A DNA stretch of 64,000 bases from Neophaeotheca triangularis (lineage: Eukaryota), in the NCBI GenBank assembly GCA_054600435.1, contig BAAIJX010000049.1, forward strand, positions 62,001-126,000, read 5' to 3'. The stretch's first letter is position 1, and every line of letters starts with the position of its first letter. Positions 213 to 26,310 of the stretch are shown one piece after another. Position numbers and translations under genes: made by a program. Below the pieces are notes generated by a model. It did no database searches. It had not been told where the DNA came from and worked only from the letters and a program-made list of their open reading frames with translations.

Positions 213-363
213 TATTACGGTAGGAGGGTCTACGCTAGCTTAGGTAGGCTTAGGTAGGCACTACCTCCTTAGTATTGTTTACTTATACTTTAGCCTTATA
301 GATAGTTACATAATGCTACTTTGCTTACACTATACATTAAGACCTATACCCTAGATCTTAACA
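213..363 (+). repeat. 5' LTR of element A
   Basis: T(A/G)TTA...TAACA; matches 26155-26305 with about 11 transitions and no indels; followed by candidate PBS TAGTAGCTAAGAA at 366-378. Confidence 0.95.
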
Positions 364-429
364 TCTAGTAGCTAAGAAGAGAAAAGATCATTAGGTAAAC
401 CTATCCCTAAAAAGTCTTACTTATAGTCC

Positions 430-950
430 CTAGTCTACCCGACCGGTAATAGTTAGTATAAAGGAACCTAGTCTGCCTAATCTACTATAGTCTACTCGAC
501 CTACGACGGTCTACCTAGCCCTTCACTATCTACTTAACCCTCTAGGGTCTACTCGCCTAGTAGTAGTCTACTCGACTCGTCACGAGTCTACTTAACTAGC
601 TATAAGTCTACCTGACTAGCTATAAGTCTACTTGACTAGCTATAAGTCTACTCGACTAAGGATAGTCTGCCCTACTCATTTTAGGCCGATAGACTAATTA
701 GGCTCCGGCCTACTCTCTACGGTCTAACTACCGAAGTCTACCTAACTCGCGCTAGTCCGAATCCGAAGTCTACCTAACTTATCCTAGTCTAGTTAACTTA
801 CTAATGTCGACGTAAACCGCGCTACTCTACTCGAAGTCTATTAACTCTAGATGATTTGCCGGAAGACCTTTCCCTTATCCGCTAAATTTAATAAGAGCCG
901 GTAGAGCCTATCGTAGTCTCGTTTAATTACTATAGTCTCGCCTACCTATA
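430..950 (+). repeat. 19-20-bp-period motif array (AGTCTACTCGAC-like core, variable spacers) in the 5' UTR of A
   Basis: Cores start at about 432, 470, 489, 508, 527, 546, 565, 585, 605, 625, 645 and 665, with more degenerate copies to ~940. Confidence 0.85.
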
Positions 951-3900
951 ACTAAGAGAATAAAGGGGAATTTACTATAAGCGTCGTCACACGCGTCTAG
1001 CGAAGACTAGTACTTGTCCTATTAGCTCGCTTAAAACCGATAGCTACTTAGTAAGACCCGATTACATAGCCCTTATAATACTACCTTATAATCCGTAACC
1101 CTACCTTTTCTCTACGAGAATTAGTCTAGTCGGGAACAATTAGGCTTTAAGCGCCTACCCTAGAGCCGTTACTAGATCTTATAGAGTTCTTAATCGATAT
1201 AGCCTATTACCTTTTAAACTTCTATAGTAACGAGCGGAGATCTAAGGCTATCTATAGTAGGAACCTACGGATATAGTCTATAGCTAACAGAATTGTCGCT
1301 AGATACCCTCGCCCTAATAAAGACTATAGAGAGTTCGGTTTCCCTCCGTAGTAGTATATAGACAAGACGTTAATTAACCCTAAAGTGAAAGACCTACTTA
1401 GCGCTTATAAGGGAATTAAGTACTACCCCCTACTTAGAATCGACGAACCTAGCCCGGCGATTATAGGAGTACTAGTAGCTACCTACGCCCTACGACGCCT
1501 ACTATCTAAATCTACGGTAAGGATACCTTCTAAAAGCTAGGCAACTGTCCTAGTAACCCCTAAGCAAACCCCTCTCCTAGAAAGCGAAAGCCTACTTAGT
1601 TCTACTATTAGCGACGACATCGTCTAGAACCAAAAGCCAGTTTTCGCTAGTTTTAAGTCTATAAATCACTAGACCCCTTTACCTAAAACCGAAACCACTC
1701 CCGTAACTAAGAACTTATCGCGATCCCTATCGCCTATCTCTAGAGAGTTCTATAAGGAGCTATATACATTTATCGAACCCTCTAGGCCTACTATTACCCT
1801 CTCTAAACATAACCCTAAGCCGGGTTATATTACTACTCTCCTACGTAGCATTCTACCTCTATAAGAGCCTTTTACTATTATGGCATTAATAATAGAACCT
1901 AATAACAACTAGGAGTACGACGACTATTCCCCCGAGCCCGGGCCTAGTAATAGATAAGGGAAGTAGCCTACTAACTACGCCCCGTAAATGCTTAACCTTA
2001 CGATAGCTACTCTCGACGATATAGTTAACCGCGCTATTACGAACGTAGCGTAAGAAATCGACGCGAGGGTAGAGAGCCGATTCAAGCCCTTTAGGTAGTA
2101 ACTTAAAACTACTAGAGAGACTAATAATAGTACTCGTTAGGTAGACCGGATAGCTGCTAGAGCCCGTAGTAGAGACATAGTTAAAAGTCACTAGGACGAT
2201 TAAAGCACCTAGGAGGATAGAGACTATCGTAGGGAAAGTAGCCGACCCTATAACACTTCCTAGAACCGCCCTAGTAAGAGCGACTACGCTTAGTACTCGA
2301 ATAGGCGGCGCGACAAACCTAACTATGCCTAGTACTCGAACGGGCGGCGCGACAAATCTCGCTAGGGAAAGATATCGGAGGAGCGCCTCCGTGTAGTAGG
2401 TTTTCCTCCTAGCGATTACTAATAGGTAAGCTATCCTAGAGACCTAGACCCCTCCGATTTAGACCCCGAAGGTAGACTATATAGCTAGAGAGATAGGCGC
2501 GGCTATAATAGACTACGAGGGCAATCGAGAGGCCGCTAGGACTCCTACTACCTAAGGTCTCGTTTGCGCTCTAGATCCCACTACCTAAATTTTTTTAAGG
2601 TAGAAGAGATCGGTTTCTTCGACCCTTATCTTTCTATAACCGAGGCGCTAGCCGGCGATATAACGATGTATTAGAATAAACCCTATTTTAGATAAGTCTA
2701 CTTTTTCATCTAGGCGGCCCGTAACTATACCGTAGTTAATAGCTCCTTAGGTATACGCCTCTAGCTTAGTAAGTGTCTACACGGGGGAGCTAGTTAATAG
2801 TTTATAGTATAGCTAAGTAAAGCAGAGAGAAATTTCATACATATAGGGCCTAGCATTAAACGTTAGGAGGTAGCGCTTTATAACAAATACCGCGTCTTAG
2901 TGACCACTACTATAGTAAAGCTGTCGGCCGAGTCCTTTACCCGTAACGACATACGTGTAGAGCGGGCTCCTTCGGAGTTCGTACTTAGCTATTATCGCTA
3001 GGCTTTAGAAGCGAGAATCGATAGTTTAGAAGCCCGCCTAGCATAATGCTAGATAAGGATTAATAGGCAACTCTACTATAACATTAATAAACCTAACGAC
3101 CGAAGTACCTAGGAAGAGATAATAAGGGACATAGAGGACGCGATAGATATATAGAGGGATCTATACCCTCCTCGTACCTTTCCTACTAATAATAACTATA
3201 AGCCGAGTTTTGCCCCACGAGGGAATAAAGACAATAGTAGTAGTCGAGGTAATCGCCCTAATAGGCGGTAGGGGTCCGATAATAGCCGTGACTCTAGTAA
3301 TCGCCGTAATACTAATAGTAATTAGTAGCGATTTTTCCCTTAGCGGTACTTCGAAAACGTAAGCGAGCGGGGAGCTTAGACGTAACCCCTACCCCCCTAA
3401 AGAGAGTTAGGTTCGAGTGACTTAGCCTAGTAGGCCTAGACCCCTCGATAGGGGTAAAACCGCTAGAACCGACCTAAGCCTACTAATTACCATTTAGCTA
3501 GTGTCGAAGAAGGAGAGGAGCAATTAGACGTGGTAAAGGATAATGTTACTAGCGAGGAATCCGCGGATAAAAGCTAGCCGGACGAAGTACTAGTGAACTT
3601 TAACGATGTTATCTACTACTCTAAGGGCGATGATTACTATATAAGTAGCGACCCTATAGACTACTACGTGTCGGAGGCTTTACCCCCTAAGCTCTTAACT
3701 CTATTAGTAGATAGGGCGCTACGACCTCTAGTGTCTCTAGCGCCTATACCGAGTAGAATCTATTACGCGTATTGCCCTAAGACCTTTAGGTCAAAAAACT
3801 CTCTCTATCGTTATCTACGAGCTAAACATAGCTCCCTCTAGTCTACCGGCGTAAAGCCCGTATAACTAGCTAACTACGACACTACGATAATAGCCCTAGT

Positions 3901-6900
3901 AGACCGCGTAGGGGAGATATCTGTCGTTAAATCTATAGCGCGGTCCTTAGACTATTAAGGGTATACTTTCCGAAACTACTACTATCTCTATATTATAATT
4001 CCCCTTTCGTAGTACGGTTAGGACTATACCGTGTGTCTCGACATAGGTATAGTAGTCTCTATAATAGACTCTAGTTTCCTTTCCTAACATTTACCTAACG
4101 CCTTCCGCTATAAGTTTAAGGTTCCTTTCTAAGTCCGAGGGGTTAGTAAAAAGCTCGAGACATGCTCCGAATACATACTCCTTACTTTCTAGATACTTAC
4201 TAAGCGACGAAAGGAACGAATACTATATAAGATAATATACGAGATCTATGTTATTAATAAGCTAAAGCCACTTATACTAGTATCTATAGACATCGCTATA
4301 CCGGAGCTTTTTAAGATTAATATCCTATATAAGATCCTCGAGATCGGAGCGTGTAAAGGAGCTAGAGCGCCCTTACTAGTAAAGCCTAGGGATTCCCCTC
4401 GAGTAGCTTATACTATTAGAGCCCTACACTAGTCGGTCGTGCCCGGGCGAACCCTAGCTAGAGTAGTAATAGTAGTCTGAAAACTCTATAGTAACTAGGA
4501 CTACGAATACTCCCCCCTCTACCTACCTAGCGGTCTTACGGGCTATAAACATGCTATAGACTCTAATTTTAGTTTCGTGATAATACATAACGACACCCCC
4601 TCCCTAGTCACTCTACTAGCCGAGCGATGTTTAGGACAGCTCTCGGAATAGGAGGAGGAAGATAGGTACTACGTAGACCTAGAGGACTATTACCTCGCTA
4701 GCCTCCTACTAAAAACTATCTTTAAGGGCCTCCCTAATAACGAATAGTATGCCCTCGCTAATAGAATTACGATCTACGGCAATACTAGATAGTTCTAATC
4801 CTTAGAAGGCTTAGTCTATAGTTTTATAGACCTCTTTGTCGATAAAGACTAAACTATCGATATACTAGAGAGTAGGCATATACCTATTTATCTTAAGTAA
4901 GGGTAGGAGAAGGAGAAGCTTTTAACGAAGGGCTATAACCTCTTAATAACTAACCGTAAAGTAGTAGACAAGGTCTTTAATAAGCTTTATGCTTAGCATA
5001 AGATAGAGTTTTTATAGTAGTATACTGCCTTCGGTTTTCTAGTATTTGTTATGTAGAAAACTGTCTATGTCGATAGTAAGCCGGTTAGGAAAGGCCGCGT
5101 AGTAGTCGACATACGGGGTCTTAATAAAGTTACTGTTAAGGACAGCTACCCTTTACCCCTATAAGAGGACCTTCTCTAAGCGACCCGTAGTGCTAAAATC
5201 ATTTCGGTAATAGACGCTATAGCCTTTTTCTATTAATAGCTTACCGTAGTCTACGATAGGTATAAACTAGCTGTAAATTCACACTAGGGTTAAAAAATAT
5301 TTAAGGTCGCTATTATAGGTTTTAAAAACTCGGTGGCGTATATCTAGCGAGAACTCGACAATATGCTTTACGAACTACGCCCCTTTTATAGGGCCTATAT
5401 CGACGACATAGTCGTTTTCTCTACTTCTCTCGAAGAGCATGTATAGTACCTTAGGCGTCTTTTTACCGTCCTTACCCGCTATCGAGTTAGCCTTAGCCTA
5501 ACTAAAACCTTTCTAGGCTTCCTATCTACCTCTTTATTAGGCTAACACGTTAGTAGACTAGGTCTCGCTACTTACGAGGATAAGATTAAGGCAATTCTCG
5601 ACCTCCGTTTTCCGAGGTCCTTAAAAGACTTAGAGAAATATTTAGGACTTACTAGCTAGCTTCGCTCCTTAGTCCTATACTATATATAGATTACGGAGCC
5701 GCTATAGAAGCTTAAGACCTAGCTCTTAAAAGGCGGCCTAGTAAAGGGCTCTACGCGGAAGCGCTATACCGCGATAACCCTAGTAAAATTAGATACTAAC
5801 CGACTATAAGAACTTAGCTATAAGGCTTTCTAGACGCTCTAAAGCATTTTTGCTAATATGCCTTTCCTCTACTACCTTAACCCTACGTAGCGTCTCTACA
5901 TTAACATAGATACCTCTAAGGAATTTAGTTTTAGAGTAGCCGTCTATATAGTAGTAAGCGACCTAGACCCCGTAATAATAGGTAGAAAGGCCGCCTACTT
6001 TACTAGGAAAGATGTCTAACCTATAGCTTTCCTTAGTAAGGGCCTTATAGTAGTAGAGGCGAACTACTAGCTAATAGAGCTTAAGATAGCCGGATTAGTC
6101 TAGGTCCTACGTAAAGCGCGACACCTTATCTAGTTAGTTCCTAGGCTAATAGTAGTGTTTACGGACTATACTACTATAGTAGGTATAGCTATATAGTATA
6201 GTCTAATAATAACTACGGCTATAGGCAAGCTAAACCTTCGCCTCGTTAGGGCTAGCTAGTACCTCTCCTAGTTCGCCCTAGATATAAGGTACCGCCTAGG
6301 GCGTATCTATATAGTCCTAGACGCCCTTAGTAGACTACTTAGTAACCTTACTATACCGGTAGAGACCCTAGAAGTAGACACCCTAGACCTAATAGGTTAT
6401 AAGGAATCCTACTATGTTAGTCACGATGCTATATAGAACTAAGATTAGGAACTACTCACTTTCTATATAGCCCTCGTAGAGCTCGATAACGATTTCAAGG
6501 TAGAGCTAATATAAGCCTATAAATCCGACCGCTTTTAGGCGCCGCGACTAGAGTAGCTATTACTCTAGGAGAAGCGTAGACTAGAGGAAACTAGACGGGA
6601 GACGGCGACTACGGTTTCTCCCCCCTAATCGGCATCTAATACCCCTACCTAGACTAGCGCGTCTAAGGCGGTACTATAGGCGCCCCTAACCCCGGCGTAT
6701 CCTCTTGACATAGAGGAAATTAACCCTAATAAGCTTACTAGAGAGCCGGAATCGGCACTATTAGGACTTAAATTTTTTCTACGAGAAGGTTTAATCTACT
6801 TCCGTGATTAGGAAGACGGTAGAGAGCGACTTTACATACCTAAAGGTCTTTTCAAGGAAGTCTTTAAAATAGCCTATAATAATCACTATTACGTAGGTTT

Positions 6901-8316
6901 CTTTCGCTTATATACTCGTATTTAGGCTAGTTTTTATATCCGAAGACTCCCCTACGAGCTCCGTCTCTACATCGCACATTACCCTGATTATAATGTCTAC
7001 TAGACGTTACGCTATCGCCTACTTAGCGAACTTTAGCCTATATAGACTAGACTAATCCCCTACTATACCTAAACTACGGATTAGGTAGTAGGGCTACTAC
7101 TAACATTAGACGGTTTTAACGTAATACTTACTATAACAGACCGTTTCTTAAAGAAGATTCTACTTGTTAAAGGCAAAAACGAGTAGTTAGCATAGTAATA
7201 GGCCTTAGCCTAGCTAGAAGCCCTCCGAGCTACTAAGTAGAATATCCTAATGATATTAATCGGCGACTAGGACAGACTCTAGTTATCTACCTTTTAGAAA
7301 GCACCTTTTAAGAAGCTTAGTACCCGTTTTCTTACGTCTACTACATACTACCTATAGACAGATAGCTAGTTAGAAAGAACGAACTAGATAGTCGAGATTG
7401 CCCTCTACTTTTTCGTTAACACTAATCCTAATTACTATTAGGATATAGCACTCCCTTATATCTAGTCTACAATGAACAATGCCCGTAACATGGTAACGAA
7501 CGAGATCCTAAACATAGTAATATAGGGTTTTAAATTAAACCTCGACGCGCTAAACCCCCTTATCGAGCTACCTACCTAAGACTACGTTATACTACGCTAG
7601 GTAGCGAGAGATTAAGCTTTAGATTCGCTTATACTAGTAGTAGCGGTTATAAAGGACTACTACGATCGTAGCCATAAGCCGGTTCGTTTCCGTCTTAGCT
7701 AAAGGGTATTACTAAAGCTTTAGAAAGGTTACTCTATCCCTAGTCTTATGTCTAGAAAACTAGCGCTATAGCGGGTAGGACCCTTTATAATCACGAGGGT
7801 AGTAGGTCGGCTTACTTACGAGCTCGACCTACTAGAGGGCTAGAAGATATACCTAGTTATCTCTATCGCCTAATTAGAACTAGCGCCTCTTACCCCCGAC
7901 CCCTATAGGAGGGAACCTACGGAATCGGGCCCGGTCTCTATAGATAATAATAGCATGTACGTCTACTAGATTAAGCGATTAATCACGAGGTATATACGAA
8001 AGTAGGTAGGCAAGGATGTTAAATAGTACCTTATTAAATAGGAAGATTAGGGACTAGCTTATAATACCTAGTATAATGTAGACGACCTAGTAGATACGAA
8101 GGAACTTATCGAAAACTATAAGCGTAACTATCCGGGTACTCTAGGGGACCTTAGTATCCGTCGCTATAGCCCCTAGCATTAACCCCTACCGCTACTACTA
8201 GCCCTTTCCCCCCCTCCTCTAATTATGACCTTAGACATAACCCGCTATCTCGTACTAGTTTTACCGTAGACTCCGATAAGTTAGTATGACCTAGCGGCGT
8301 CGACACTAAGACCTCT

Positions 8317-8474
8317 TACTACGACTAAAGGGTGTAGTACTAAGTGTAAGATGTAAACAAGATGAATAAATGAAACTATCTAGCTATAGAGGTAGAAGTA
8401 GCTAGTCTAGGGCTAGGCTACTACCTTCCCTACTAGACTAATAGGGTAAGGGCTCCCTACCTCCTACTATAATA
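8317..8474 (-). repeat. 3' LTR of element B
   Basis: Near-identical to 21247-21404; adjacent to the polypurine tract on the minus strand. Confidence 0.95.
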
Positions 8475-8514
8475 AACTCCCCCCCCTTAAGAGGCGTATA
8501 TGTCCTTATAGGCT

Positions 8515-8815
8515 AAGGTCGTCTTCCTAAAGGGAAGTCGTCTTAGCGAGGTTAAGTCGTTATAGGTAGCGCGAAGTCGTCTTAACAACTAGGAGTCGTG
8601 ACGACTAACTAGAGTCGTGTCGACCGGCTAGAGTCATGTCGACTACTACGAGTCGTCCTAACTACCTAGAGTCGTCTTAATAAACGGAAGTCGTCTCGAC
8701 TATTAGGAGTCGTCTTAACCGCTAGGGGTCGTCTAGGTAGGGAAAAGTCGTCTAGACATTATAGGGCCGTGTTAGCAGCGAATAGTTATCTCGACAGTAA
8801 GAAATCGTTTTGACA
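8515..8815 (+). repeat. 19-bp-period array (~16 units, core AGTCGTCTCGAC) in the 3' UTR of B
   Basis: Cores at about 8517, 8536, 8555, 8575, 8594, 8613, 8632, 8651, 8670, 8689, 8708, 8727, 8746, 8765, 8784 and 8803, with variable 7-nt spacers. Confidence 0.9.
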
Positions 8816-9007
8816 ATATAGGGTTACATTAGCCTTATAGTGTTCGAGGAGCCATTAGCGCTACGAGAGGTAGTAGTATAATAGCTAGCTATAGTAGGAG
8901 GTTAGGGTACGGTTAAAATAAGGCTTAAGGGTTTTAGCGGCGTAGGTAAGTTCCTTTATGCTTTAGATAAATATACTATGTACTGTACTAGTCGTATGTC
9001 GCTCGCG

Positions 9008-9290
9008 CAAAAGCTCGTAGAGGGCGATAGCTATACTAGTATAAGCTATTAAAGTACTAGTCTATAGAAAAGCTCGTAGAGGGCTAAAGCTATACTAGGT
9101 AGAGCTGTCAAATCGCTAGTCTATAGAAAAAGCTCGTAGAGGGGCAAAGCCGTACTAGGTAGAGCTGTTAAAGTGCTAGTCTATAAAAAAGCTCGTAGAG
9201 GGATAAAGCTATACTAGGAAGAGCTGTCAAAACGCTAGTCTATATAGAGCTCGTAGAGGGTTTAAAGCCGTACTAGGATAAGCTTAGAGG
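9008..9290. repeat. ~60-bp tandem repeat (~5 copies) in the 3' UTR of B
   Basis: Unit AAAAGCTCGTAGAGGG...AGC(T/C)(A/G)TACTAG...AGCT...CTAGTCTATA recurs at ~60-bp spacing. Confidence 0.9.
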
Positions 9291-9325
9291 GATAAGCCTT
9301 GTTTTAGTAGAGTAGAGGTGCCGTG

Positions 9326-9440
9326 TAGTTAAAGGGATTTCGCCTTAAGTTAGTAGAGCGAAGGTACCTAGTAGTTAAAAGGGATTATGCCCTAAGTTAG
9401 TAGAGCGAAGGTACCTAGTAGTTATATAGGATTTTACCTA
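9326..9440. repeat. ~47-bp tandem repeat (~2.5 copies)
   Basis: TAGTTAAAGGGATT...TAAGTTAGTAGAGCGAAGGTACCTAG is repeated. Confidence 0.8.
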
Positions 9441-9462
9441 GAGCACTACTTATAACCTAGGG

Positions 9463-12400: not shown

Positions 12401-12939
12401 TACTTTAGGTTAAGAAGATTAGTAGTAGCCGAGAGGCCGAGAGTGAAAGTGTTTTAGGTAAAAGAGACGCCGAGGTTAGCGTGAAGGAGGACTACTACCG
12501 CGTTTTCAATTAACTAGGCCTCGTAGGGCTAGAATAGTAGCGATAGAGTAGGAAGGGAGTAGGTATCTAGAATCTATAGTCCGTTACACGCGAAGGTGTT
12601 ACGCTAGTAGGGAGACCACTAGGCTAGCGGTAGGTCTAGCTTTTCAATAGACTAGTAGACTACTAAAGGAGCGGCAGGTTAAGAAGTGTCGGCCGTTATG
12701 CCGTTCTCTCCCTATAGGAGGTAAGGGCGTATAGTTTAGGTTAAGTTAGTCTTTTATATATAAAGGAAGCGTCTTAGTGTAAAGTATAGTAAGAGTATAA
12801 GCTCGTTTAGCGTAAGAGCCGCTAGTAGTAGGTAGGCGGAGGTATACTCGGTTTTAGAGATGTTATCGCTAGGTAGTAATAAGTTAAAGTTGTCTAATAT
12901 ATAAGAGTATAAAGTAGGTAGCTAACCGAGTGTTATCAT
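9463..12939 (-). pseudogene. RIP-degenerate extra ORF (ORF3, ~1158 codons) of element B, unknown function
   Basis: One frame from ATG 12939; its translation aligns block by block with 21762-25373 (e.g. LYSFEVLKTL, YFIKVLSEG, IGSGILNPFT, RYVYV*GVYTL, *LEYVDVDRV, PI*RYTVNLP). The end position is approximate. Confidence 0.85.
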
Positions 12940-13160
12940 AGAGAGAAAGTGTTATATAAAAAGGGTGTTATAGTAAGGTATAGTCGTAAGGTAAAGGAGA
13001 GCTTTTTAGAAAGGTATAGAGTTACGTTGTTATTATTATTACTAAAAGCGGAAAGCAAGAAGTTATGCTAAGAAGTGAAAGGTACTACGTTATATGTCGC
13101 CGTAGTAACGGCAGGCATTATCGATAGCGCTAATAAGAATAGTAACGCCGCCGAGATGCC

Positions 13161-16100: not shown

Positions 16101-19100
16101 TCGTAGGTAGTCGAGGTACTCGTCGAGGTTAGCGGAAAAGATAATAATGTCGTCTATATAGGCGCGGTAAAATGGACGGAGGTAGTATAGGATATTGTTA
16201 AGCTCCCTCTAGACGTAGGCCACTAAGTTTTTAAAACCTATAATAGCGACTTTAAAAACTTCCTATCTGTAATAGGAGTTAATAGCGAGCTTATAGTAGT
16301 CTTTTACGGTAGTGAGCTACTAGAAGAAAAAGGCAACTACATCTATAACTAAGATAAGTTTAGTACCTTATATTGCCTAAAGGAGGTCTTCTTAGAGGGG
16401 GAGTAGCTAGCTGTCTTTAACTATAACGAGATTAAGGTTACGGATGTCGACGACTACATAACCCTTTCTTACTAGGGCTCTATCTTTATAGACCGTTTTC
16501 TACATAACGAAGACTAGGGAGCCGAAAGCTATATACTCGTAGGACTACTCCATTTTGCCTTACTAGTGTAGTCTATCGTAGGCCTCGTTAAGTATAAGGC
16601 GGTCTAAGGCGTAGAGCGGATACCCCTTCGTAGACAGCTTCTCCTTTTCCTAGCCGTCTTTAAGATAGATAGGTATATAGTAATGTTTAGGGATGTCTAC
16701 GGTTTAGCCTTTATCGACAAATAGGTCGGGGAAGTCGCCTAACAACATGTTAAAAGCTACTACCTATATATCATCGCCGAACACCGTAATTCTATTAGGT
16801 AGGACGAGTTAGTTAGCTATTAGTAGGCCGTTAAAAACGGTTTTAGGTAGGAGCCCTACTAAACAATAGTTATTAGGGCTAATATAATAGCCCTCCTCGT
16901 CGGTCCACTCTATTAAACGGCCGAGGGGCTTCCTAGCTAGTAGCGTCACTAGTTAGAGAGAGTCGTTCCTAATTATCACGAAGGCTAAATTGGCGTCTAT
17001 AGCGTAGTTATATCCCTTTAACCTAGGGGGAAGGCTCGGGCTAGGTATGAAGTCGAAATCTCTATCCGTAGGGAGGTCTATCTAAGCTAAGGGAACTTTC
17101 GCTAATAAGCGCGGCGGAATAGTGACGGGGTGTATAGCTTTTAGTAATAAACCGAGCTTTAAGTAGTCTCTAGACTTAATGAGTAGGGGTACTCTAATGT
17201 TTCCGTAGGCTCTAATAGTCACGAGCTTATAGGGGATATTAATCTTCATTACCTAGGGGGTAATAATGTCTATAGAAATGAGCATTAATAGCTTTAAGTC
17301 GCTAACAATGTATACCTTATAGGTCATTTCGTAGAGGCCCCTTCTAGTAGGGGTATTAGCGAGCGTCTAAAAGATAAGGTTAGCGTACTCGGAGTATATA
17401 TATAGTCGGGAACTAACTCCATGTACCTAGAAAGGCACTTTTAGCTTATAGAGCTAAATGTTAGGTAAATGAGTAGCTAAAAATCGTTTGTCGATCATAG
17501 ATATAATAGCTCCTATATCGAGGTAGATAGAGTAATCGACGCCTAGCTTAGCTAGCTATATAGCGAGGCGAAGATAGTAAAAATTGTAGAAAGCATATCC
17601 TTAATAGTTAGTCCTAAGAGCTAATAATTTAACGACTAGGAGTTCCTCTTCGTACTTAGGTAAGGAAGTCGTTTTAGGAACTTCGGCTAGTTAGGCGGAC
17701 TTAGAGTCCTCTACCGTACTATGTATAAGCTATAAATGCCTATAGAGGGAGTTTCGTGAGCTAAAAGAATCATTGCATTCTAAGCACCTAAGCTTAGCTA
17801 GGTAGGGCTATATAGCTAATGCTAGTCGTAGTGCCGCTAGTGTAGGAGTTATAATAAGGCTAGGGACTAAAGCCTCGTTCAGATAGGCTTAGACTAGGTT
17901 AGCCGAAGTGAGAAATTAGTCGTCGTCGTCGTCGTAGGCGACAATGTTAGCGAAGTTAACCTCTAGGGCGTCCTCCTTATAGTACTCGTAGTCCTCGTAG
18001 TTCTCTAACTCGTCTAGCTCTACTACATGATTATAGTTATCGACCTCGTCATCCTTATCGATATCGGCTAAGTAATTGTTAGCTAGTCTTAGCTAAGTAC
18101 GTAGGGGCGCTAACTAGGGGGGTTGTTTATCCTAGTAAGATTAGCGTTAGCGACCTTAATTCTATAGACGGTTTATGTTATCTTGCGAACCGAACTCTCT
18201 TTAGGTAGGGGGGGCAGTCTAGGGTTGTTATCTCGGTAAGTAATAGTCTACTATGTTTCCTAGAGGTCGAGCCTAGGGGTTAGGGTTAGGGGTATGGCGA
18301 TTATCGCTTCTAAAGTAGTAGTTGCCTATACTATTAGTGTCGATTAGGGGGTTAGGATAATAATGCTTACTTAGTAGGTTAGTAGGGTAGAGGGGGTATA
18401 ACTTAGCCCAAGTATCTATATAATCCTCTATCTTATGTATTAACTCCTCCTATATAGTAGCGTGGTCTAGTTTGTCGATATCTCATCGTAGCTAGGGCTT
18501 AATGCGAAGCTAACACTAAGCTATCCTAGTAGTTAGGCTGTCGATTTGTGCCTCTAAAGCCTATTAGTAGTAGCTTAAAACGAACTTAGAGGGGGCTCTC
18601 CCCTAGCGTATATCTTTATAGGAAAAGAGTTCCTTATTAAGATTAGTAAGTGTAGTCGTGACTAAGACACGGAATTTGTCGCGTAGTGCTATCTCCTAAC
18701 GTTTAATACCGCGGCTACTACGAAGGTAGGCCCTATTAGCGTTAGTAAGTTAGCTGATAAACTACTAGCTCGCGCCTCTATATAGGCATTTCGGTAACTA
18801 CTACCTCGTAGTAGTAGTAGAGTTAACGGTAGAGTAATCCTAGGTAGATTAGAGGAAGTAGTACATAGAATGGAAGAATTATTTGTTCTAACACATAACG
18901 GAATTACCTACTAGTACGTCGGTTGTGACCGGAAGGTATAGATCGAAATAGCCTACATTATTAGCTCTAAAGTTGCCCTAGTAAGAGCGCGAGCATAACG
19001 GGTTTTAGTTACGGTCGTAGTAGGAGTCGCGTCTACTACGGGAGGTCTTACGAGAGCGATAATCTCTATAACGCTCCCTTCGAGAGTATAGATAGTAGTC

Positions 19101-20750
19101 GGAGTCTAAGCTAGAAGAGCTAGGGTCGTTAGGCTCGTCCCTTGCCTAGTACCTAGGTAGGGAGTTATAGGGAATTTGTCGATAGGGGGATAGAGGCCGT
19201 ATATGTCGCTAGGGGGATAGAGGCCGTACATTTACTTGTTCTTCGCTAGCCTAGGTAGAGAGGCCGGCTCTCCTAAGGCGCTCGTCCTAAGGAGGGGCGT
19301 AATGACGAATCTCTCGCTAGAATTTAATAGAGGGTAACGGCTAGTACGAGGCTGCGTTTAGGAGTAGTCTAGGTTGTCCGAGCTTATAGCGGAATGCTTA
19401 AAAGCGCTCGTTAAGATTAGTACTAGCTTTAGAGCGAACTTATATAGTAGTATGTTAGAACTCGGCGATAGAGGTACTTCTTGTCTCTTCTACCGCCTTA
19501 TAGAGTATCTCCTAAATGCTATCTCGTATAATGTAATCTAGCTCTAGATCCCGTTAGGGTTGTTTCCCCTAGGTCCTAGTACTAGGGCTAGCTAGGGCCG
19601 ACTAACGGTCGTCGTCGTTATAGTCGATAGGGCTATTATAGAGGGTGCCTTCCTATCTAGACGTTATTACGACTGTCGATGCGGGTTAGCCTTAGGGAAA
19701 AGTCTAATCGGCTACGAGAAAGGGGAAAGGGGCGTTTCTAAATTCGCTATAAGTGCGCGGAGGTGACTCTAAGGAGGCCTTTATAGTTAGTAAGGCCTAG
19801 GAAGGCTTAGAGGGCGTCGACTACTTAGTCTTTAGTAGGTCTTCGAAACCGGGGTGTTATAGCAGTTCCGGGGGGCTGTCGTCGCTAATCGTAGAGCTAA
19901 CGTCGTCACTTAGTAGTACCTAGATCTCCGAAGGTAGCGTAAGTAGTAGGGGGTACTAGATAGGATTAATAGCTAGGGAAGGGCGAGAATCCTATGTAAC
20001 GGGGGTTTATTAGGGAGCGGTCGCTAACAGGGAATTCTAGGTAGGATTAACGGCTACGGGAAGACGGGGTTCTTCTATAGTAGGGGGTTTTTAGGGAGCT
20101 ATTACAACCTATCTCTTAGGGGCGACTACAACTTTCCTTAGGGTATGTATAGGGCGGCTTTTAGTAGTAACGATAGTAGCTAGTAACCCTATAAGCGTTA
20201 GCTCGGGCGGGTCTAGATAGAGGGCCGGGTAGTAGCGTATCCTCTCGAAAGCTATAAGCAAATCGCGTACTACTAGTATAATAAGTGATTTCTTAATAGA
20301 CTAATTAGTAGGGAAGCCGAACTCTCCTAGGTCTAGGTAATAGGGTAGCTTTAAGTTATTAGGAGGAGGATATCTTAGAGTTAAGGATTCCTACTACAGA
20401 TAGCTTTAGAGCGACCGAGGTAGGAGTAGAAGGCATATAGCTAGTAAGCCGTAAGCACGATTTGTATAGGTAGCTTAGGTAAGGGGTCTAGTATAATAAA
20501 CACGGTTTAATTAGTAAGCGCTCGACTAAACTTATAGGTAGAAAGCGGAGTTAGAAGGCCTTATAGCTTCCGTAATTAGCCGGTTTAGTATAGCGGAAAA
20601 GGGAGGGTAATGTCCTAATGCTAAGTAGCTTAGGTAGAGGGGCGAAAGGGAGTAGTAGTATAGGTACTAAGTATTATAGTGGCTCGGGCATATATAGAGA
20701 TGCTTGCGATCGATACTAGGTCTAGGATTAGTCTCGTATTCTTATAAGGT
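13161..20750 (-). pseudogene. RIP-degenerate gag-pol of B; start approximate
   Basis: GEFGFP (~20320), VGYFD gag (~18950), C2H2 finger CLECNDSFSSRNSLYRHL (~17730-17790), protease (~17520), RT YIDD (~16155), RNase H, integrase, chromodomain (~13450-13615). Its C-terminal peptide resembles that of A; stop at 13161. Confidence 0.9.
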
Positions 20751-20844
20751 AGTGTACCTTCGAACCTAATGTGTATTACTAATCGACTTAGAGTAGTAGA
20801 ATGTCGTTAAGCGGCATAAGGTTAGCTCGAAGCGGCTAATAAGC

Positions 20845-21200
20845 GTTATAGCGCTTAGAGTAGTTCGAGACGAACTAGGGGCTTGCTAACGACTAAGGGG
20901 TTATAGTGACGCCTATAGCGGGCCGAGACGGGTAGGTAGTGTTAGGACGGTAGTGTGGTGCCGAGATACCTAGCGAGGCTCGAGACGACTCCGGCGTGTC
21001 GAGACGACATCACGGTGTCGAGATGACTTTAGGGTGTCGAGATGACTTTAGGGTGTCGAGACGACTATGAAGTGTCGAGACGACCTTAAGGTGCCGAGAC
21101 GACTCTAGAGTGTCGAGACGACTTTAGCTAGTTAAGACGACTTTATCTAGTTAAGATGACTTCGGCGGGTAGAGACGACTTATAGGTTTAGAGCTAGCTA
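20845..21200 (-). repeat. 19-bp-period array (core GTCGAGACGACT on +, i.e. AGTCGTCTCGAC in element sense) in the 5' UTR of B
   Basis: Units such as GTGTCGAGATGACTTTAGG repeat at 19-bp spacing; the core is the reverse complement of that in the 8515-8815 array. Confidence 0.9.
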
Positions 21201-21246
21201 TCTAGTATTAGTGATCAAGGGATCCTTACTATTCTTAGCTACTAAT

Positions 21247-21404
21247 TGCTACGACTAAAGGGTGTAGCACTAAGTGTGAGATGTAAACAAGATGAATAAA
21301 TGAAACTATCTAGCTATAGAGGTAGAAGTAGCTAGCCTAGGGCTAGACTACTACCTTCCCTACTAGACTAATAGGGTAAGGGCTCCCTACCTCCTACTAT
21401 AACA
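21247..21404 (-). repeat. 5' LTR of element B
   Basis: TG...CA termini; candidate PBS (minus-strand TAGTAGCTAAGAA) at 21232-21244. Confidence 0.95.
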
Positions 21405-21761
21405 CCTCCGGTCGACTAGACACTAGCGAGTTATTTAGACTTAGACAAACCCCTATACTAAGAAAGTCTCCCCCTAAGGAGACCTAGGCCGCTAATTTAG
21501 CGTATAGGAGAGGAGGTTAGGAGGCAGACTTGTAGAGCTACTACTAGAGCCTTCTAGAACTCCTAAGACACTTCACTATATCGTCTATTCTTATCGCCTA
21601 TTAGTAGCCGCGTCGTCGCTATAACGACGAGTATGTAGCGCCTAACGCGAGTCTTAGCACTATGTTCTAAAAACACCTCTTCACTTCTACTTTCGGTAAT
21701 AATAACAATACTACAAATTTTTTACATCTCTACTATTATCACTAATAACCTCCTACACCTT

Positions 21762-24700
21762 ATACAATAAGTAACCGTTAAGAGTAAACTAGTCCTTAAC
21801 TATACCCCTACCTCTTTTCTATTAGACCCTATTGTCCTATATAGCGATTTAGAGGGTAGCGAAGACACTCCCTTCATTAACTTTAAGGCGTAATAGCGAG
21901 AGCGTACCTTTTAGTCCTACTTTTAACTTAACGAGTTCGCCGCCCTCTACCTTAACTACCCTAGAAGGTATAAACTCGAGCTCGTACCGGGAGACTCTTT
22001 TACTAAGGAGATAGCGTAGTTAAAGAAGAACGTAGCGGCAGTCCTATTCGTAGGTAACCTCTTCTATAGTTTCACTTTGAAATCCTACGAGCGCGCGCTC
22101 TACGCGACCGCTAACGCGCTTACTACTAACGGCAAACCGGATAATGACTATCGTTTCCGAACCCTTACCTATTCACTTTTTCTGTCCGACTGTTTCCGAG
22201 TTCGCCGAAACAACTAACTTCATAACCTGACTAGGCTTACTAGCGGCGACCTTTTCTATTATCTCTTAGACCTCTATAAGGCGGCGCTAACCTCCGCCTA
22301 CCTATATATCTAGGCCCTCTACTCCGCGATACTAGTAGAGCCTGTCGACGGTTACTCTCTAGGCCCTTAGACCTTTATAGGTGTCCCTAACATATACGCG
22401 ATTTTTTAACGACCTTCCCCTATAGAGTCCGCCGCCCTAGACATCTAGGCTTTAATCACGAAAGAGTTAGATATAAAAGTAGAGTCTACGCGTCCTCTAG
22501 TAGCCTTTTATAGTACTAAGGGTTACACTATAAGAGAGGGACTTGTTAAGATAGGAGTTATTTTAGCTAACGAGATAATCGAAGCTATAGTATGGCGTTA
22601 CGCTAAAGGAGACTTCTATCTATTCGACCGCGAGAACGAAATCTATGACACTAACTATTAGAAAACCTACCTAAGTTTCGAATCCGCCTATAAGTAGGTC
22701 TATAAGAGAAACCCGACATTTGGCGAGGTCGAACTTATCGATAACACTATCTCGCTCCTTACCCTAATCGACTTAGAACTCCTCTACTGCCTAGCCCCCT
22801 ATACCCTCTAGAACTAGCCCGGAGCACTCTACTACCTCGGTTAACTCGGTATAGGTTAGATCATTTTAGAGCTACTCGAGCTAGAGTAGGCCTCGATATT
22901 CTATGCCTTTCCTAGCGATAGCCTCTTACCTAACGCTAAGCGCACTACTATTTATAACTACGAGGATTTGGTAACGGATACCGCTAGAAAGTTATACACG
23001 TTTAAGTACTTAAAGAACCTATATAACCCCGAACGTTTCTAGTTTACAGCTAACTACTTTATAGCCCTTTTATTAGAAGGCTAGCTTAAGTCCTACTAAG
23101 ACGCTATCTTAGTCGACGAACATAACGGATACCCGTACTTTACGTATAGGGCACTAGGACTAGCGGTAAGAGACCTTTACTAAGAAATAGTACATGTTAC
23201 CGTAGCTATAGGAGGCGGATACCCTAACCCTTTTACTATAACGCGCGAAGATACTAATAGAAACGAATATGAGGGCAAATTCTACATACTCTACGAACCT
23301 TTTGCCTATACTATTAGCTAAGCGCCCGAACGTCACTATAAGACAGTCTTAAACCTATCGTAGACCTATCGGTCTAAGTTCTATTTCTATATCTATAGTC
23401 CCTAGGATAAGAATAACCTACCCCCGGCCTATACCGCTTTAGAAGATACGGACGTTCTCGAGTTACTTATCCTATACTACTATGTAGGTACCCTCTCTAT
23501 CGAGTTCCTCTAGAACTACTACCTAGAGTCCTTTTCCTATAAGGGCTAGCTGCTACTAATACGCTAGTAGCGAGGTAGACCCGGTATCTTCTAGATAGTA
23601 GGTAAGGGCTAGAGATACGCTTATATCTAGGGTATTTATACCCTCTATAGTAGCGGCTACCTCTACTACTACCTCGAGTAGCTAAATAACGACAAAAAAC
23701 GCCTTACCTTAATGTACCCGGTAAATAATACCTATATATAGTAGCGCCCTATAGACCCCGCGGGACTAGCCCGCCCCTCTTATAAGGCCTAGGAAAACTT
23801 AAAGGATAATAGAGTTAAGCTCTAGGACTACGACGATAATCTTTAGGTTAGATAGGACCTTATTCGTTAGCTAGAATACGTCGACGTCGACCGCGTTAAC
23901 ACTAGATACTACGCCTACCTAGACTTATAGGAAGCGCTCCTATTAGGATACCTAGAACGAGTTATCCTAGAGAGCGTTACTCTTACCTAGAGCGAGTAGA
24001 AGAACACTACCTCGTAACCTTAGCCCTTAATAGAAGGCCGCGATGTAATCTTAGACTTAGATAGACCGCTAGATTTCTCCTATAGTAACTATTACCCTAT
24101 ATAGCGCTATGCCTTTAACCTACCGCTACCCCTAGGATTAGAAATTATAGTGATAATATAGTATGGTTAGTAGACTCTACGACGTGTCTTAGGGTTAGAA
24201 GCAGGTTTCCGCCTCCTATAGCCTAACTCTAGGACGAGTATCTAGGCGTAAAGGCATACTACCTCGGCTAACCGAGCTTACTAGGCGGCAGAATAGGCCC
24301 GTACCCCGTCTTACGAGATAGGAGCCCTTTAAATTAGTAACCCTATTCCCTTTAGCCTAGCGCCGTAAGTACTCTAGCCCTACTCTACTTAGAACTAGAG
24401 CTCCGATCCGTTCGTGCGATAAGCGCTATAATAGTCCTAGTAGCCTCCTTTCGTTTCCTCCTAATAGGCGTAGCCCGGTGTCGCTTTCGGGTTTAGAATT
24501 AGCTAGGTAGACTACTAGCCCGCGAACTCCTAGTAACTACGTTAATAGACTACTTACTAGTAGAGTGGCCTACCCTAGCCGACGTTTATATTCGGAGCTT
24601 AATAAACGTAGTCATACTAACTAGGTTTCGAGCTATAGTAGAACCTCGCTCCGTAACCGAGTACCTAGGCCGTATAGTCGTAGCTATACTAACCTCTACC

Positions 24701-25373
24701 CTAGTAAGTTAACTAGTAAGGCGTAGCTTACGGGCCCCTCTCCTAGCCGCATGTCTCGTAAACCTAGACTCCTTTAGGACCGTAGTAGTAACGAGCGTAG
24801 CGTGTCGTCTATTTCGACTAGTAAACCCCCGCGGTACTACATAACGGATTAATGTTAGGAGCCCTACCGTTTAGTACTCTATAGCTATAGACGCCGGCTC
24901 CGCCCGTCTAGCTAATTAATTAGCTTATATCCGGGTACTCGTAAACTACTTATAATATAGCGGCTTAAGAGTATACCTAGGCCTAACTCTATTTAGTAGA
25001 GTCTTTTAACGCGGCTCGGGTTTTATTATAATAAATGGCGACTATTAAGGCTATAACGGAATAGGGGATCCGACGTAACGTTATAATAGCCGAATAGTAG
25101 TCTATATAACATGCCTAGGTAACGCTAGTAACCTTCCCCGAACCCCCGTAAGACTAGTTAGACTAGGTAGCGATATAGGATAATACCCCTACTAACGACC
25201 CGTAGATAGATAACCTCTCTATCGACTTCGCTAACCTTTTCCCTACGTCGCTCCTAGACGCTAGTACATTCGACTAGTAATACCCCTACCGTAACCCTAC
25301 TAGGGCTATATGCGAAACCTCTAATACCGCTACGCTATCGTCGCTAGCTAAGAGGAAAAGGGACGGCCTATAA
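21762..25373 (+). pseudogene. RIP-degenerate extra ORF (ORF3, ~1200 codons) of element A, unknown function
   Basis: One frame read over 3.6 kb. About 790 N-terminal codons are homologous to B ORF3. A TAG/TAA-dense tail (inferred Gln/Pro-rich) ends ...AKRKRDGL. The start is inferred from ATA, assumed to be a RIPed ATG. Confidence 0.85.
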
Positions 25374-25789
25374 GACCGCTCCTACCTATAGGTAACCGGA
25401 GACCTAGCTCCGGTTATGCTCTAGTATAGGGTTTTTTCTTTTCTTACTTCTTATTTCTTACTCGATTTCTCTTCTCTACCGCTATTACTATAGCTCCTCT
25501 AGGCATTACTACCTAACGATAAGGCGTAGTCTAACTATTACCGTACTTTTTACTACGCGTTTTTCTTTCCTATCGTATACTGTCGCTAGAACCGGTCTTA
25601 ATTCCCCGTATACCGCTACTAGAAATAGTTAAGCCGCCGCCCTCCGACCGCCCCTATAGCTCCCGCTACTTACTAGTAATTCGGATAGGGCTAGTGTTTA
25701 GTAAATAGTCTTATTAAAAGTATCGATATTCCTACCGTTACCGAAACGCATTAGCCTAAACCCTTACTAACGTCTCGCCTCGCTATACC

Positions 25790-26110
25790 TATCTACTATA
25801 GATTATTTCGAGACTAACTACACTACTACTACCCTCTATAATACGCTAAAGCTAACTAGACTTTTCCTAGTCTATATAACTCGCTAAAGTCGACTAGACT
25901 TCCGCTAGTCTATATAACTCGCTATAGTCGACTAGACTTCTACTAGTCTACATAACTCGTATAGGTCGACTAGACTCCTACTAGTCTATATGACTCGCTA
26001 TAGTCGACTAGACTCCCTACTAGTCTACATGACTCGTACGGGCTAGCTAGACTCGCTAACGTCGACTAGACTCCTCGCTAGCTATATAACCTACGTTAGA
26101 TAGCTAGACT
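25790..26110. repeat. ~38-bp dyad repeat array in the 3' UTR of A
   Basis: Units GTCGACTAGACT-N6/7-AGTCTA(C/T)AT(G/A)AC-N8, i.e. the 5'-array motif in alternating orientation. Confidence 0.88.
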
Positions 26111-26154
26111 CGGGAGGATAGTAAGGACACTACCTAATATAGTAGGGGGGGACT

Positions 26155-26305
26155 TGTTATAGTAGGAGGGCCTACGCTAGCTTAGGTAGGCTTAGGTAGG
26201 TACTACCTCCTTAGTATTGTTTACTTATACTTTAGCCTCGTAGATAGTTACATAATGCCACTTTACTTACACTATATATTAAGACCTATACCCTAGATCT
26301 TAATA
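26155..26305 (+). repeat. 3' LTR of element A
   Basis: TGTTA...TAA(T)A, preceded by the PPT and followed by TSD GCGCC. Confidence 0.95.
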
Positions 26306-26310
26306 GCGCC

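Follow-up and report, generated by a model that had tools for sequence, protein, structure and literature searches.

The stretch of DNA analysed here, referred to as the window, comprises 64,000 nucleotides of the fungus Neophaeotheca triangularis (GenBank assembly GCA_054600435.1, contig BAAIJX010000049.1, positions 62,001 to 126,000 of the forward strand), and all coordinates below count from its first letter. The first 30 kb of the window are AT-enriched, stop-riddled transposon DNA with a GC content of 0.31-0.48, followed by a gene-rich block with a GC content of 0.47-0.62. Only two stop-to-stop frames of at least 100 amino acids (aa) overlap positions 1-31000, a pattern expected from repeat-induced point mutation (RIP). 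Two complete nested elements with long terminal repeats (LTRs), called A and B, were defined in this DNA by repeat finding and direct reading. Each of them carries, just inside both of its LTRs, an array of many copies of a 12-nt word which differs between the two families. The four arrays are the subject of this report. Their word was conserved while the spacers around it changed, and they are tentatively read here as clustered protein-binding sites.

The two elements are organized as follows (coordinates, strand, feature, and basis of the assignment where it applies).

213-26305, plus strand: element A, ~13.0 kb once B is removed
208-212 and 26306-26310, plus strand: target-site duplication of A, GCGCC (direct reading)
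213-363, plus strand: 5' LTR of A, 151 bp, TG..CA type with RIP changes (repeat finding, local alignment)
366-379, plus strand: primer-binding-site-like sequence of A, TAGTAGCTAAGAAG, aligning with that of B and with TGGTAGCTGAGAAG of the relative L001 (see below)
1262-8311, with a tail at ~21410-21800 after B, plus strand: gag-pol of A, RIP-riddled, one frame (Pfam, similarity to B)
26141-26153, plus strand: polypurine tract of A, AGTAGGGGGGGAC (direct reading)
26155-26305, plus strand: 3' LTR of A, 151 bp (repeat finding, direct reading, local alignment)
8317-21404, minus strand: element B, ~13.1 kb, nested in the 3' end of the pol of A
8312-8316 and 21405-21409: target-site duplication of B, AGAGG/GGAGG, with one RIP-type change (direct reading)
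21247-21404, minus strand: 5' LTR of B, 158 bp (repeat finding, direct reading)
21232-21244, minus strand: primer-binding-site-like sequence of B, TAGTAGCTAAGAA (aligned with A and L001)
12964-20333, minus strand: gag-pol of B, with a C2H2-like finger near 17759, the protease motif LDIG at 17522, and the reverse transcriptase motif YIDD at 16160 (Pfam, similarity to A)
8477-8488, minus strand: polypurine tract of B, AAGGGGGGGGAG in the sense of B (direct reading)
8317-8474, minus strand: 3' LTR of B, 158 bp (repeat finding, direct reading)

An earlier note on this DNA, made from the sequence alone and called here the original prediction, had given the span 430-26110 for element A. This span is not a single continuous element, as B lies nested inside A. 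The LTR pair of A is 89% identical over a 166-nt repeat, and that of B is 97% identical. Both elements show what is characteristic of Ty3/Gypsy retrotransposons: TG..CA LTRs with a target-site duplication, priming sites, and the domain order reverse transcriptase (RT), RNase H, and Tf2-1-type integrase SH3 in a single frame, as found by Pfam with stops read as X. The matches in A are RVT_1 (1.2e-11), RT_RNaseH_2, RT_RNaseH, and SH3_Tf2-1, with the protease motif LDIG at 4037 and the RT motif YIDD at 5396; some of the pol scores in A and B lie under the gathering cut-offs owing to RIP. A primer-binding-site-like 13-14-mer and a G-rich tract adjoin the LTRs in A, B, and L001, and the sequence of A differs from TGGTAGCTGAGAAG of L001 by G-to-A transitions.

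The Gag-Pol proteins of A and B share 49% aa identity over 2,132 aa. At the DNA level, pol alone aligns (64-67% identity by blastn), and blastn finds no alignment between the untranslated regions (UTRs). Such a pol-only alignment, together with the Gag-Pol identity, indicates that A and B are two related but distinct Ty3/Gypsy families. Both may belong to a fungal chromovirus-like Gypsy lineage. Pfam Chromo has no match in A or B; the segments YLIKxEDxG..YNTxYNVDDL (A) and YLVKxKDxG.. (B), which follow the integrase SH3 domain, look by eye like a chromodomain. From the end of pol to the 3' LTR both elements extend over a further ~4.4-4.5 kb, containing the arrays of the 3' end and an additional open reading frame, ORF3, described below.

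The four arrays occupy the following positions.

413-952, plus strand: 5' array of A, in the leader, word AGTCTACTCGAC, ~14 clear and ~7 degenerate AGTC-anchored units, period 19-20
25817-26115, plus strand: 3' array of A, 8 units in strict 19-nt register from 25869 and further units, 38-nt super-unit
20860-21180, minus strand: 5' array of B, in the leader, word AGTCGTCTCGAC, 11 strict 19-nt units (21180-20972) and a degenerate tail
8517-8765, minus strand: 3' array of B, 13 units, period 19(-20), reading AGTCGTCTYRAC on the plus strand of the window

All four are AGTC-anchored and follow a strict 19-nt period, occasionally of 20 nt. The original prediction had placed the arrays of A at 430-950 and 25790-26110, and both Tandem Repeats Finder, used for period and copy number, and the motif counts agree with it. 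For the 5' array of A, Tandem Repeats Finder reports period 20 at 482-656 (9.0 copies) and at 585-658 (92% matches); clear units lie between 432 and 805 and degenerate ones extend out to 952. The 3' array of A shows period 38 at 25817-26036 (5.8 copies) and period 19 at 25879-26073 (10.2 copies). Period 19 is likewise found at 8575-8734 in the 3' array of B and at 20980-21127 (7.8 copies) in its 5' array, where the period 19-20 array spans 20980-21162, repeat finding gives 11 spacings of 19 nt, and higher-order periods of 38 and 57 nt also occur. The motif AGTCTACYYRAC has 10 matches in the window, nine of them at 432-778 (plus strand) and one at 51256, against a chance expectation of 0.16, and 0 of 100 shuffles reach this number. 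Nine matches are found for AGTCRTCTYRAC, all within the arrays of B (three at 8575-8719 on the plus strand, six at 21017-21161 on the minus strand), where 0.04 would be expected by chance and again 0 of 100 shuffles attain the count.

The location of the arrays is closely similar in the two elements. The gap from the primer-binding-site-like sequence to the start of the 5' array measures 34-53 nt, and that from the end of the 3' array to the G-rich polypurine tract ~25-27 nt, in both. The first Gag-Pol similarity between A and B begins at 1262 in A and at ~20333 in B. Since both 5' arrays lie upstream of it, they are leader sequence and not coding. The family words AGTCTACTCGAC and AGTCGTCTCGAC are identical at 10 of 12 positions, and each element carries its own variant in both its 5' and its 3' array, so that the two ends have changed jointly between the families. 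In this respect the arrays are family-specific, as the original prediction had proposed.

The orientation of the units differs between the two ends. All 13 units of the 3' array of B are inverted with respect to its 5' array (AGTCGTC... on the plus strand); the two arrays thus read alike going inward from each LTR, and repeat finding also pairs them as inverted. In the 3' array of A, two unit types alternate on the plus strand, AGTCTAyATrAC and AGTCGACTAGAC, and the reverse complement of the latter, AGTCTAGTCGAC, shares 11 of its 12 positions with the 5' word AGTCTACTCGAC. The alternating orientation that had been proposed for this array therefore stands as an alternation of two unit types, with the qualification that the outer frame (A)GTC-N5-GAC(T) is palindromic, so that direction is given by the central bases only.

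The history of the arrays can be followed through the two kinds of substitution present in them. RIP consists of C-to-T and G-to-A transitions, made after the duplication of an element. Because it yields transitions, the transversions among the units mostly predate inactivation, and the RIP pattern separates these old differences from post-inactivation damage, exposing the constraint on the word. Transversions were counted from the column majority in the 19-nt register, with positions 1-12 taken as word and positions 13-19 as spacer, and compared by a Fisher test.

5' array of B (only the 11 strict units counted): word 3/132 cells, spacer 19/77, p 6.5e-7
3' array of B: word 10/156, spacer 29/91, p 3e-7
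5' array of A: word 3/168, spacer 19/98, p 8.9e-7
3' array of A: word 12/108 (inflated by the two unit types of this array), spacer 17/63, p 0.011

Transversions in the word are 4-10 times rarer than in the spacer, with p ~1e-6 in three arrays. RIP-type transitions number 9 in the word vs 10 in the spacer, 21 vs 20, 25 vs 24, and 7 vs 7. When the anchored positions 1-4 are dropped, a hand count leaves 2/88 word transversions in the 5' array of B, 10/104 in its 3' array, and 3/112 in the 5' array of A. This distribution argues for constraint on the word and indicates that it stayed almost unchanged as the spacers drifted.

Tandem repeats of this kind can also arise without any function. The 3' UTRs of plant Tat/Ogre elements are an example of hypervariable regions prone to tandem duplication, and slippage or unequal exchange would keep the units of such neutral by-products alike. 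Large plant Gypsy elements often have repeats of this type in these regions, and their origin is placed in replication (PMC7004042; PMC11963269; articles are cited by PMC number, and statements drawn from them refer to the available parts of their text). The higher-order periods of 38 and 57 nt in the 5' array of B are typical of satellite dynamics, and two further, unrelated tandem repeats are present in the 3' UTR of B, as found by Tandem Repeats Finder and repeat finding.

9009-9284, minus strand: tandem repeat, 59-bp unit, 4.5 copies
9304-9424, minus strand: tandem repeat, 47-bp unit, 2.6 copies

Against such an origin stand the strong shortage of word transversions, compared with the spacers, in three arrays, the persistence of the word and of both its positions though the UTRs are otherwise unalignable, and the presence of the same variant at both ends of each element. 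Together with the agreement of the two family words at 10 of 12 positions, these facts render a purely neutral origin unlikely. As a separate observation, the A-type core AGTCTA recurs every ~59-60 bp in the 3' UTR of B (9059, 9118, 9178, and 9237, plus strand), on the same strand as the AGTC word of the 3' array of B.

A second explanation starts from the inversion of the arrays. The 5' array could base-pair with the 3' array, first within the genomic RNA and afterwards within minus-strand DNA; such pairing would hold the internal ends together and, where the LTRs are very short, would aid both strand transfers during reverse transcription. The complementarity was evaluated by co-folding the array RNAs, taking the gain over the separate folds and a z-score against 30 dinucleotide shuffles of the 3' array; all these energies were computed on RIP-mutated sequence, which counts against their use as support for pairing. 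The 5' and 3' arrays of B give a co-fold gain of -64.7 kcal/mol (shuffle mean -17.1, standard deviation 5.2; z -9.2), and those of A a gain of -27.0 kcal/mol (z -3.0). The cross-family pairs are at background, with -16.2 kcal/mol (z -0.3) for the 5' array of A with the 3' array of B and -14.1 kcal/mol (z -0.8) for the 5' array of B with the 3' array of A. The complementarity of the two ends is family-specific. It restates the inverted shared word, however, and is not independent proof of pairing.

Taken alone, the 5' arrays have no more structure than their shuffles (z -1.1 and -0.03) and would be free to pair, but the 3' arrays fold on themselves to a mild degree (z -2.3 and -2.7). Pairing of the ends is favored by the inversion of 13/13 of the 3' units in B and about half of those in A, and by array ends that come to within ~25-55 nt of the two priming sites. 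It explains the inversion, the position beside the priming sites, and the association with short LTRs better than protein binding does. It also has precedents in the CYC5/CYC3 sequences of Ty1 (PMC3592414) and the bipartite primer binding site of Ty3 (PMC5371799). On the other hand, the known cyclization elements are single short sequences rather than 12-copy arrays, pairing gives no reason for a dozen copies and leaves the forward-type units in the 3' array of A unexplained, and the signal of A is weak. Bridging of the two ends is accordingly held to be a real possibility, albeit a doubtful one. If the arrays do pair, they would represent a new, multi-copy form of genome cyclization.

The explanation that is slightly favored over 5'-3' pairing is the binding of a protein to duplex DNA. 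The arrays would be selected, family-specific cis-recognition modules of this fungal chromovirus-like Gypsy lineage, in which ~11-14 copies of one 12-nt word alternate with freely drifting 7-nt spacers, one cluster following the primer binding site and one preceding the polypurine tract. These clusters would act as duplex-DNA binding sites for one sequence-specific protein, and the bound protein would set the state of transcription or of chromatin in elements with LTRs too short for enhancer repeats of their own. The logic would be that of the 12 Su(Hw) sites in the leader of Drosophila gypsy, or of the VANC target arrays of plant transposons. This reading is supported by a motif density that greatly exceeds chance expectation and is limited to the four arrays, by the constraint on the word, by the own variant of each element in both its arrays, by the format shared with the gypsy insulator, and by the fact that A and B keep their arrays at the same two places despite unalignable UTRs. 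Moreover, binding to duplex DNA covers all four arrays whatever their orientation, the forward-type units in the 3' array of A included, and among the mechanisms considered its precedents, the gypsy Su(Hw) cluster and the VANC target arrays, are the strongest. Clustered protein-binding sites on DNA are thus proposed tentatively, with a confidence that stays somewhat short of even.

Several points weigh against this proposal. ORF3 and its homologues are without a recognizable DNA-binding domain, and the structural model of ORF3 is unusable. The 3' array lies 13 kb from the promoter in the 5' LTR and has no obvious job in a simple enhancer model, and a 19-bp period puts successive sites off one face of the helix. 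The inversion, the closeness to the priming sites, and the family-specific complementarity fit 5'-3' pairing at least equally well. The sample is small, consisting of two elements and one partial relative, and A and B are not independent since they share ancestry. Finally, the unit registers were chosen by the analyst, and the transversion count in the 5' array of A took 14 of 21 segments, the 7 short or irregular ones being excluded.

The reader of the word could be ORF3, a C2H2-like finger of Gag-Pol, or a host factor. One such finger is present in both Gag-Pol frames, ~60-80 aa upstream of the protease (~3767-3830, plus strand, in A; ~17800-17730, minus strand, in B). It follows the pattern C-X2-C-X12-H-X4-H in B and shows RIP-type Cys-to-Tyr and His-to-Tyr changes in A. 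Its Pfam matches are weak and below cut-off, namely zf-C2H2_11 (E 0.0056) and zf-C2H2_4 (E 0.01, the latter in the segment of A), and the finger is a possible nucleic-acid reader. Gag-Pol also contains an arginine-rich stretch, and no CCHC knuckle is seen in it by eye.

These features of Gag-Pol would also suit a protein acting on RNA. The leader array would then be a multi-site signal for packaging, dimerization, or export, read by Gag or by a host RNA-binding protein. Packaging and dimerization signals of retroelements lie just past the primer binding site, as in the TIPIRT region of Ty1 (PMC5454406), and the lack of structure in the 5' arrays would agree with such a role. Yet the RNA of the 3' array of B shows the complement of the word, so that one RNA-binding protein cannot read both arrays, and the finger matches stay under the Pfam cut-offs. 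Recognition at the RNA level is thus considered very unlikely.

Binding sites on duplex DNA raise the question of ORF3, which is placed between pol and the 3' array in both elements.

~21650-25373, plus strand: ORF3 of A, ~1,240 aa read through RIP stops, C-terminal half very stop-dense
~12828-9450, minus strand: ORF3 of B, ~1,130 aa read through RIP stops, 3' limit approximate

The two ORF3 translations are 28.6% identical over 870 aa (E 7e-55) in frame, with off-frame pairs at ~3e-8, and are less conserved between A and B than Gag-Pol (28.6% vs 49% identity). A HMMER search over 1.84 billion representative proteins returned five intact relatives with E values from 1.8e-24 to 9e-5. They share a core of ~250 aa with the motifs MGGAKP, LPPQ.A.LEDADV, RRQ.GRPAI, YTL.GGGH, WQRP, and VD..R. 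Basic C-terminal runs of the TPRPxKR or KRK type are present in B, in A, and in the four full-length homologues among the five; the ORF3 of B has TPRPNKR at 9537 and that of A has AKRKRD at 25347. The original prediction of a conserved accessory reading frame with an end resembling a nuclear localization signal (NLS) is borne out by these comparisons. The conserved C-terminus is NLS-like and would be suited to nuclear import, and on sequence grounds ORF3 is a real orphan protein family.

Several searches bear on the nature of this family. Pfam matches no family in the ORF3 of A or B or in the five homologues, and NCBIfam gives no family above noise for homologues P0001-P0004. Among solved structures no ORF3 match appears at E up to 1, and the ESM Atlas gives no usable match for residues 280-560 of the intact homologue P0003. 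No DNA- or RNA-binding domain is detectable in ORF3 or its homologues by these Pfam, NCBIfam, structure, and Atlas searches. AlphaFold, run on the 5-sequence ORF3 alignment, predicts a long helix within a model that is unusable (mean predicted local distance difference test score 38, predicted template modeling score 0.23). Further protein homology searches returned only the ORF3 queries themselves, and no relative was found in viral contigs.

ORF3 might be the sequence-specific reader of the arrays, as a special case of protein binding, and might serve as an anti-silencing module of the VANC type, as a module comparable with Rev and its response element (RRE), or as a targeting module. It is conserved yet evolves faster than Gag-Pol, and it combines a basic C-terminus, the ~250-aa core, and the predicted long helix. 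The words of A and B differ by 2 nt, and in the VANC system at least 2 nt separate the motif of VANC6 from that of VANC21 (PMC5735166). The plant element Retand also unites a long region between pol and the 3' LTR, an extra reading frame with possible DNA binding, and tandem arrays (PMC11963269). Against these parallels, no nucleic-acid-binding domain is detectable in ORF3, VANC arrays have a single orientation and belong to a DNA transposon, and the co-occurrence of ORF3 and arrays can be judged from the DNA of one relative only, L001. ORF3 as the array reader is therefore regarded as quite unlikely.

A more elaborate version adds a role for both ends of the element. A nuclear-targeted orphan ORF3 would read the family word in mirror-image arrays inside both LTRs, and protein and word would co-evolve so that each family controls its own copies only. 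This control could take the form of anti-silencing, of a boundary that keeps out RIP-associated heterochromatin, or of a synapsis joining the two ends of the cDNA. Such a self-recognition system seems distinctly improbable on the evidence described here. If the reader of the word is encoded by the element, transposon self-recognition would extend from plant DNA transposons to fungal retroelements. If that reader is ORF3, this would be the first VANC-like module of protein and cis-array in an LTR retrotransposon and in fungi.

The relative L001 is a single metagenome locus recovered with the 5-sequence ORF3 alignment. Its contig of 3,404 bp has a GC content of 0.61, is not RIP-mutated, and encodes the homologue P0001. 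At 41 nt past the ORF3 stop it shows the end of a polypurine tract and the start of an LTR, GGGAC-T-TGTTACGG, as in A and B, and ~458 bp further it reads ..TGTCA and then TGGTAGCTGAGAAG. The latter corresponds to the primer-binding-site-like sequence of A and B with the G-to-A changes undone and is apparently its pre-RIP form. These matches identify L001 as an ORF3-bearing relative that is read across its LTR (458 bp); the contig joins the 3' end to the leader, via a tandem copy or by assembly across the LTR. It was also considered whether a 3' array could be a former U3 region left by a shift of the polypurine tract, and this was rejected, as the junction is kept in L001, A, and B.

No 3' array is present between ORF3 and the LTR of L001, and its sole tandem repeat (28 bp, 2.3 copies) lies inside the LTR. 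Its leader, visible over 298 nt, contains no array; a single AGTC-N5-GACT word lies there, ~40 nt from the end of the contig. Eight loci in viral contigs that match the primer-binding-site pattern were also tried as candidates and set aside; each has just one AGTC-N5-GAC word, which is taken as chance.

The absence of a 3' array from L001 bears on each of the explanations. ORF3 is found there directly beside the polypurine tract without a 3' array and with only one word in the visible leader; it does not require a 3' array, and the hypothetical VANC-like link between ORF3 and the arrays is slightly weakened. Bridging of the two ends is likewise disfavored by an element that does without the 3' partner, and the lack of a 3' array in L001 speaks for a neutral origin of the arrays. 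As for clustered protein-binding sites on DNA, the A and B LTRs measure 151-158 bp and have no internal repeats, vs the 458-bp LTR with an internal repeat in L001. In this sample of three, the arrays accompany very short LTRs, and the longer LTR of L001, with its internal repeat and no 3' array, fits a model in which the arrays compensate for minimal LTRs.

The surroundings of the elements contain further traces of related sequences. An exact 16-nt copy of the unit of the 3' array of A, CGCTATAGTCGACTAG, is found at 193-208, and A was inserted 4 bp downstream of it. With up to 2 mismatches this 16-mer has five matches vs 0.13 expected, three of them exact and four within the 3' array of A. The flank of A (193-212 and 26306-26320) is also similar to the last array unit, apart from a 6-nt insertion, and it may be a relic of the array of a related element or may reflect targeted insertion. 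An insertion of B beside its own word was rejected, since only the 7-8-mer GTCGACAC is near its target site, which is within chance by a rough estimate. Contigs of two sequencing runs contain the empty target site of A at 26304, with the left flank joined directly to the right flank, so that the site of A belongs to an older multi-copy repeat. On the right side of A, at ~27283-27830 (plus strand, GC ~0.31), a RIP-mutated Ty1/Copia reverse transcriptase is recognized (Pfam RVT_2, E 2.2e-13), which places A in or beside an older Copia-type repeat.

Among contigs at least 80% alike from the sequencing run that is probably the source, B is present at ~2-4 times the depth of the ORF3 region of A, the latter being represented by one contig; this excess suggests that B has a few (2-3) diverged sister copies. 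One of these extends across the 5' array and shows only small indels, at 20948-20985. Of further runs, one has no aligning contig, another has three short pieces, and a metagenome has eight short pieces. The four runs found for this DNA include no RNA run, which permits no conclusion on expression. A sharp change of composition at ~30500 separates the RIP-mutated transposon block from the gene-rich DNA. Within the gene block, tandem repeats with units divisible by three occur at 37364-37683, 38633-38964, and 40205-41422, with units of 177 and 180 bp (1.8 copies) and of 105/108/216/324 bp (up to 7.6 copies). They may belong to a gene for a repeat-rich protein, probably secreted or of the wall.

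Tandem arrays in the UTRs of LTR retrotransposons are usually dismissed as hypervariable junk, the exceptions being a few binding sites for host factors in insects. With the arrays described here, the presence of a cis-recognition module in fungal retrotransposons becomes a concrete proposal that is open to test, alongside an orphan protein family. No description of such arrays in fungal elements was found in open-access full text, a search with subscription journals and Repbase notes outside its range. Term searches for extra reading frames and tandem repeats in two papers on fungal LTR elements (PMC11540331 and PMC3248453) yielded nothing relevant.

The insulator of Drosophila gypsy is the closest match in format. 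This 340-bp part of the 5' UTR contains 12 binding sites, which share a 12-bp consensus and are set apart by short and variable spacers (PMC2374998). The 5' array of B is similar, with ~320 bp and at least 11 copies of a 12-nt word in the leader of a Ty3/Gypsy element. It differs from gypsy in its fungal chromovirus-like host element, in the second, inverted array before the polypurine tract, and in its strict period of 19-20 nt. The sequences are also different, as the word AGTC(T/G)(A/T)CTCGAC is without the TGCATA core of the Su(Hw) consensus YRYTGCATAYYY (PMC2374998).

Complementarity between sequences next to the primer binding site and others close to the 3' end is known from Ty1, where CYC5/CYC3 are required for reverse transcription (PMC3592414), and from Ty3, in which a bipartite primer binding site links the 5' UTR to the 3' UTR (PMC5371799). 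The likeness in A and B was computed by co-folding, and about a dozen repeated 12-nt words stand here in place of the single short or tRNA-bridged sequences of those elements.

The VANC proteins of VANDAL elements, which are Mutator-like DNA transposons of Arabidopsis, recognize arrays that evolve by tandem repetition, with family motifs differing by at least 2 nt (PMC5735166). What the original prediction had stated about VANC agrees with this source. Dense family-specific motif arrays in non-coding parts, and an accessory protein besides the transposition machinery, are common to both systems (PMC5735166). The elements studied here are, however, LTR retrotransposons, and their two ends are inverted, unlike the VANC motifs, which have one orientation. 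ORF3 does not appear to be a member of the VANC family, as neither A nor B nor the five homologues have a match in Pfam, by which membership was judged rather than against a VANC sequence.

Plant Tat, Ogre, and Retand elements resemble A and B in being Gypsy elements of ~13 kb with several kb from pol to the 3' LTR, an extra reading frame, and tandem arrays in the 3' UTR (PMC7004042; PMC11963269). Those are plant non-chromovirus lineages, and the reading frames of Retand are antisense with TRP28, whereas ORF3 is sense and has no Pfam match. The RIP mutations, moreover, mark the host DNA of A and B as fungal. The plant repeats vary freely in sequence and length, and a matching 5' array of the same word is not described in the available parts of these sources (PMC7004042; PMC11963269). 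The combination of an extra reading frame with tandem arrays is thus already known from plant Tat/Ogre/Retand elements, as are leader arrays from Drosophila gypsy. What differs here is the fungal host with its RIP-mutated, chromovirus-like elements, a constrained word in mirror arrays inside both LTRs with family variants, and an orphan family of accessory proteins.

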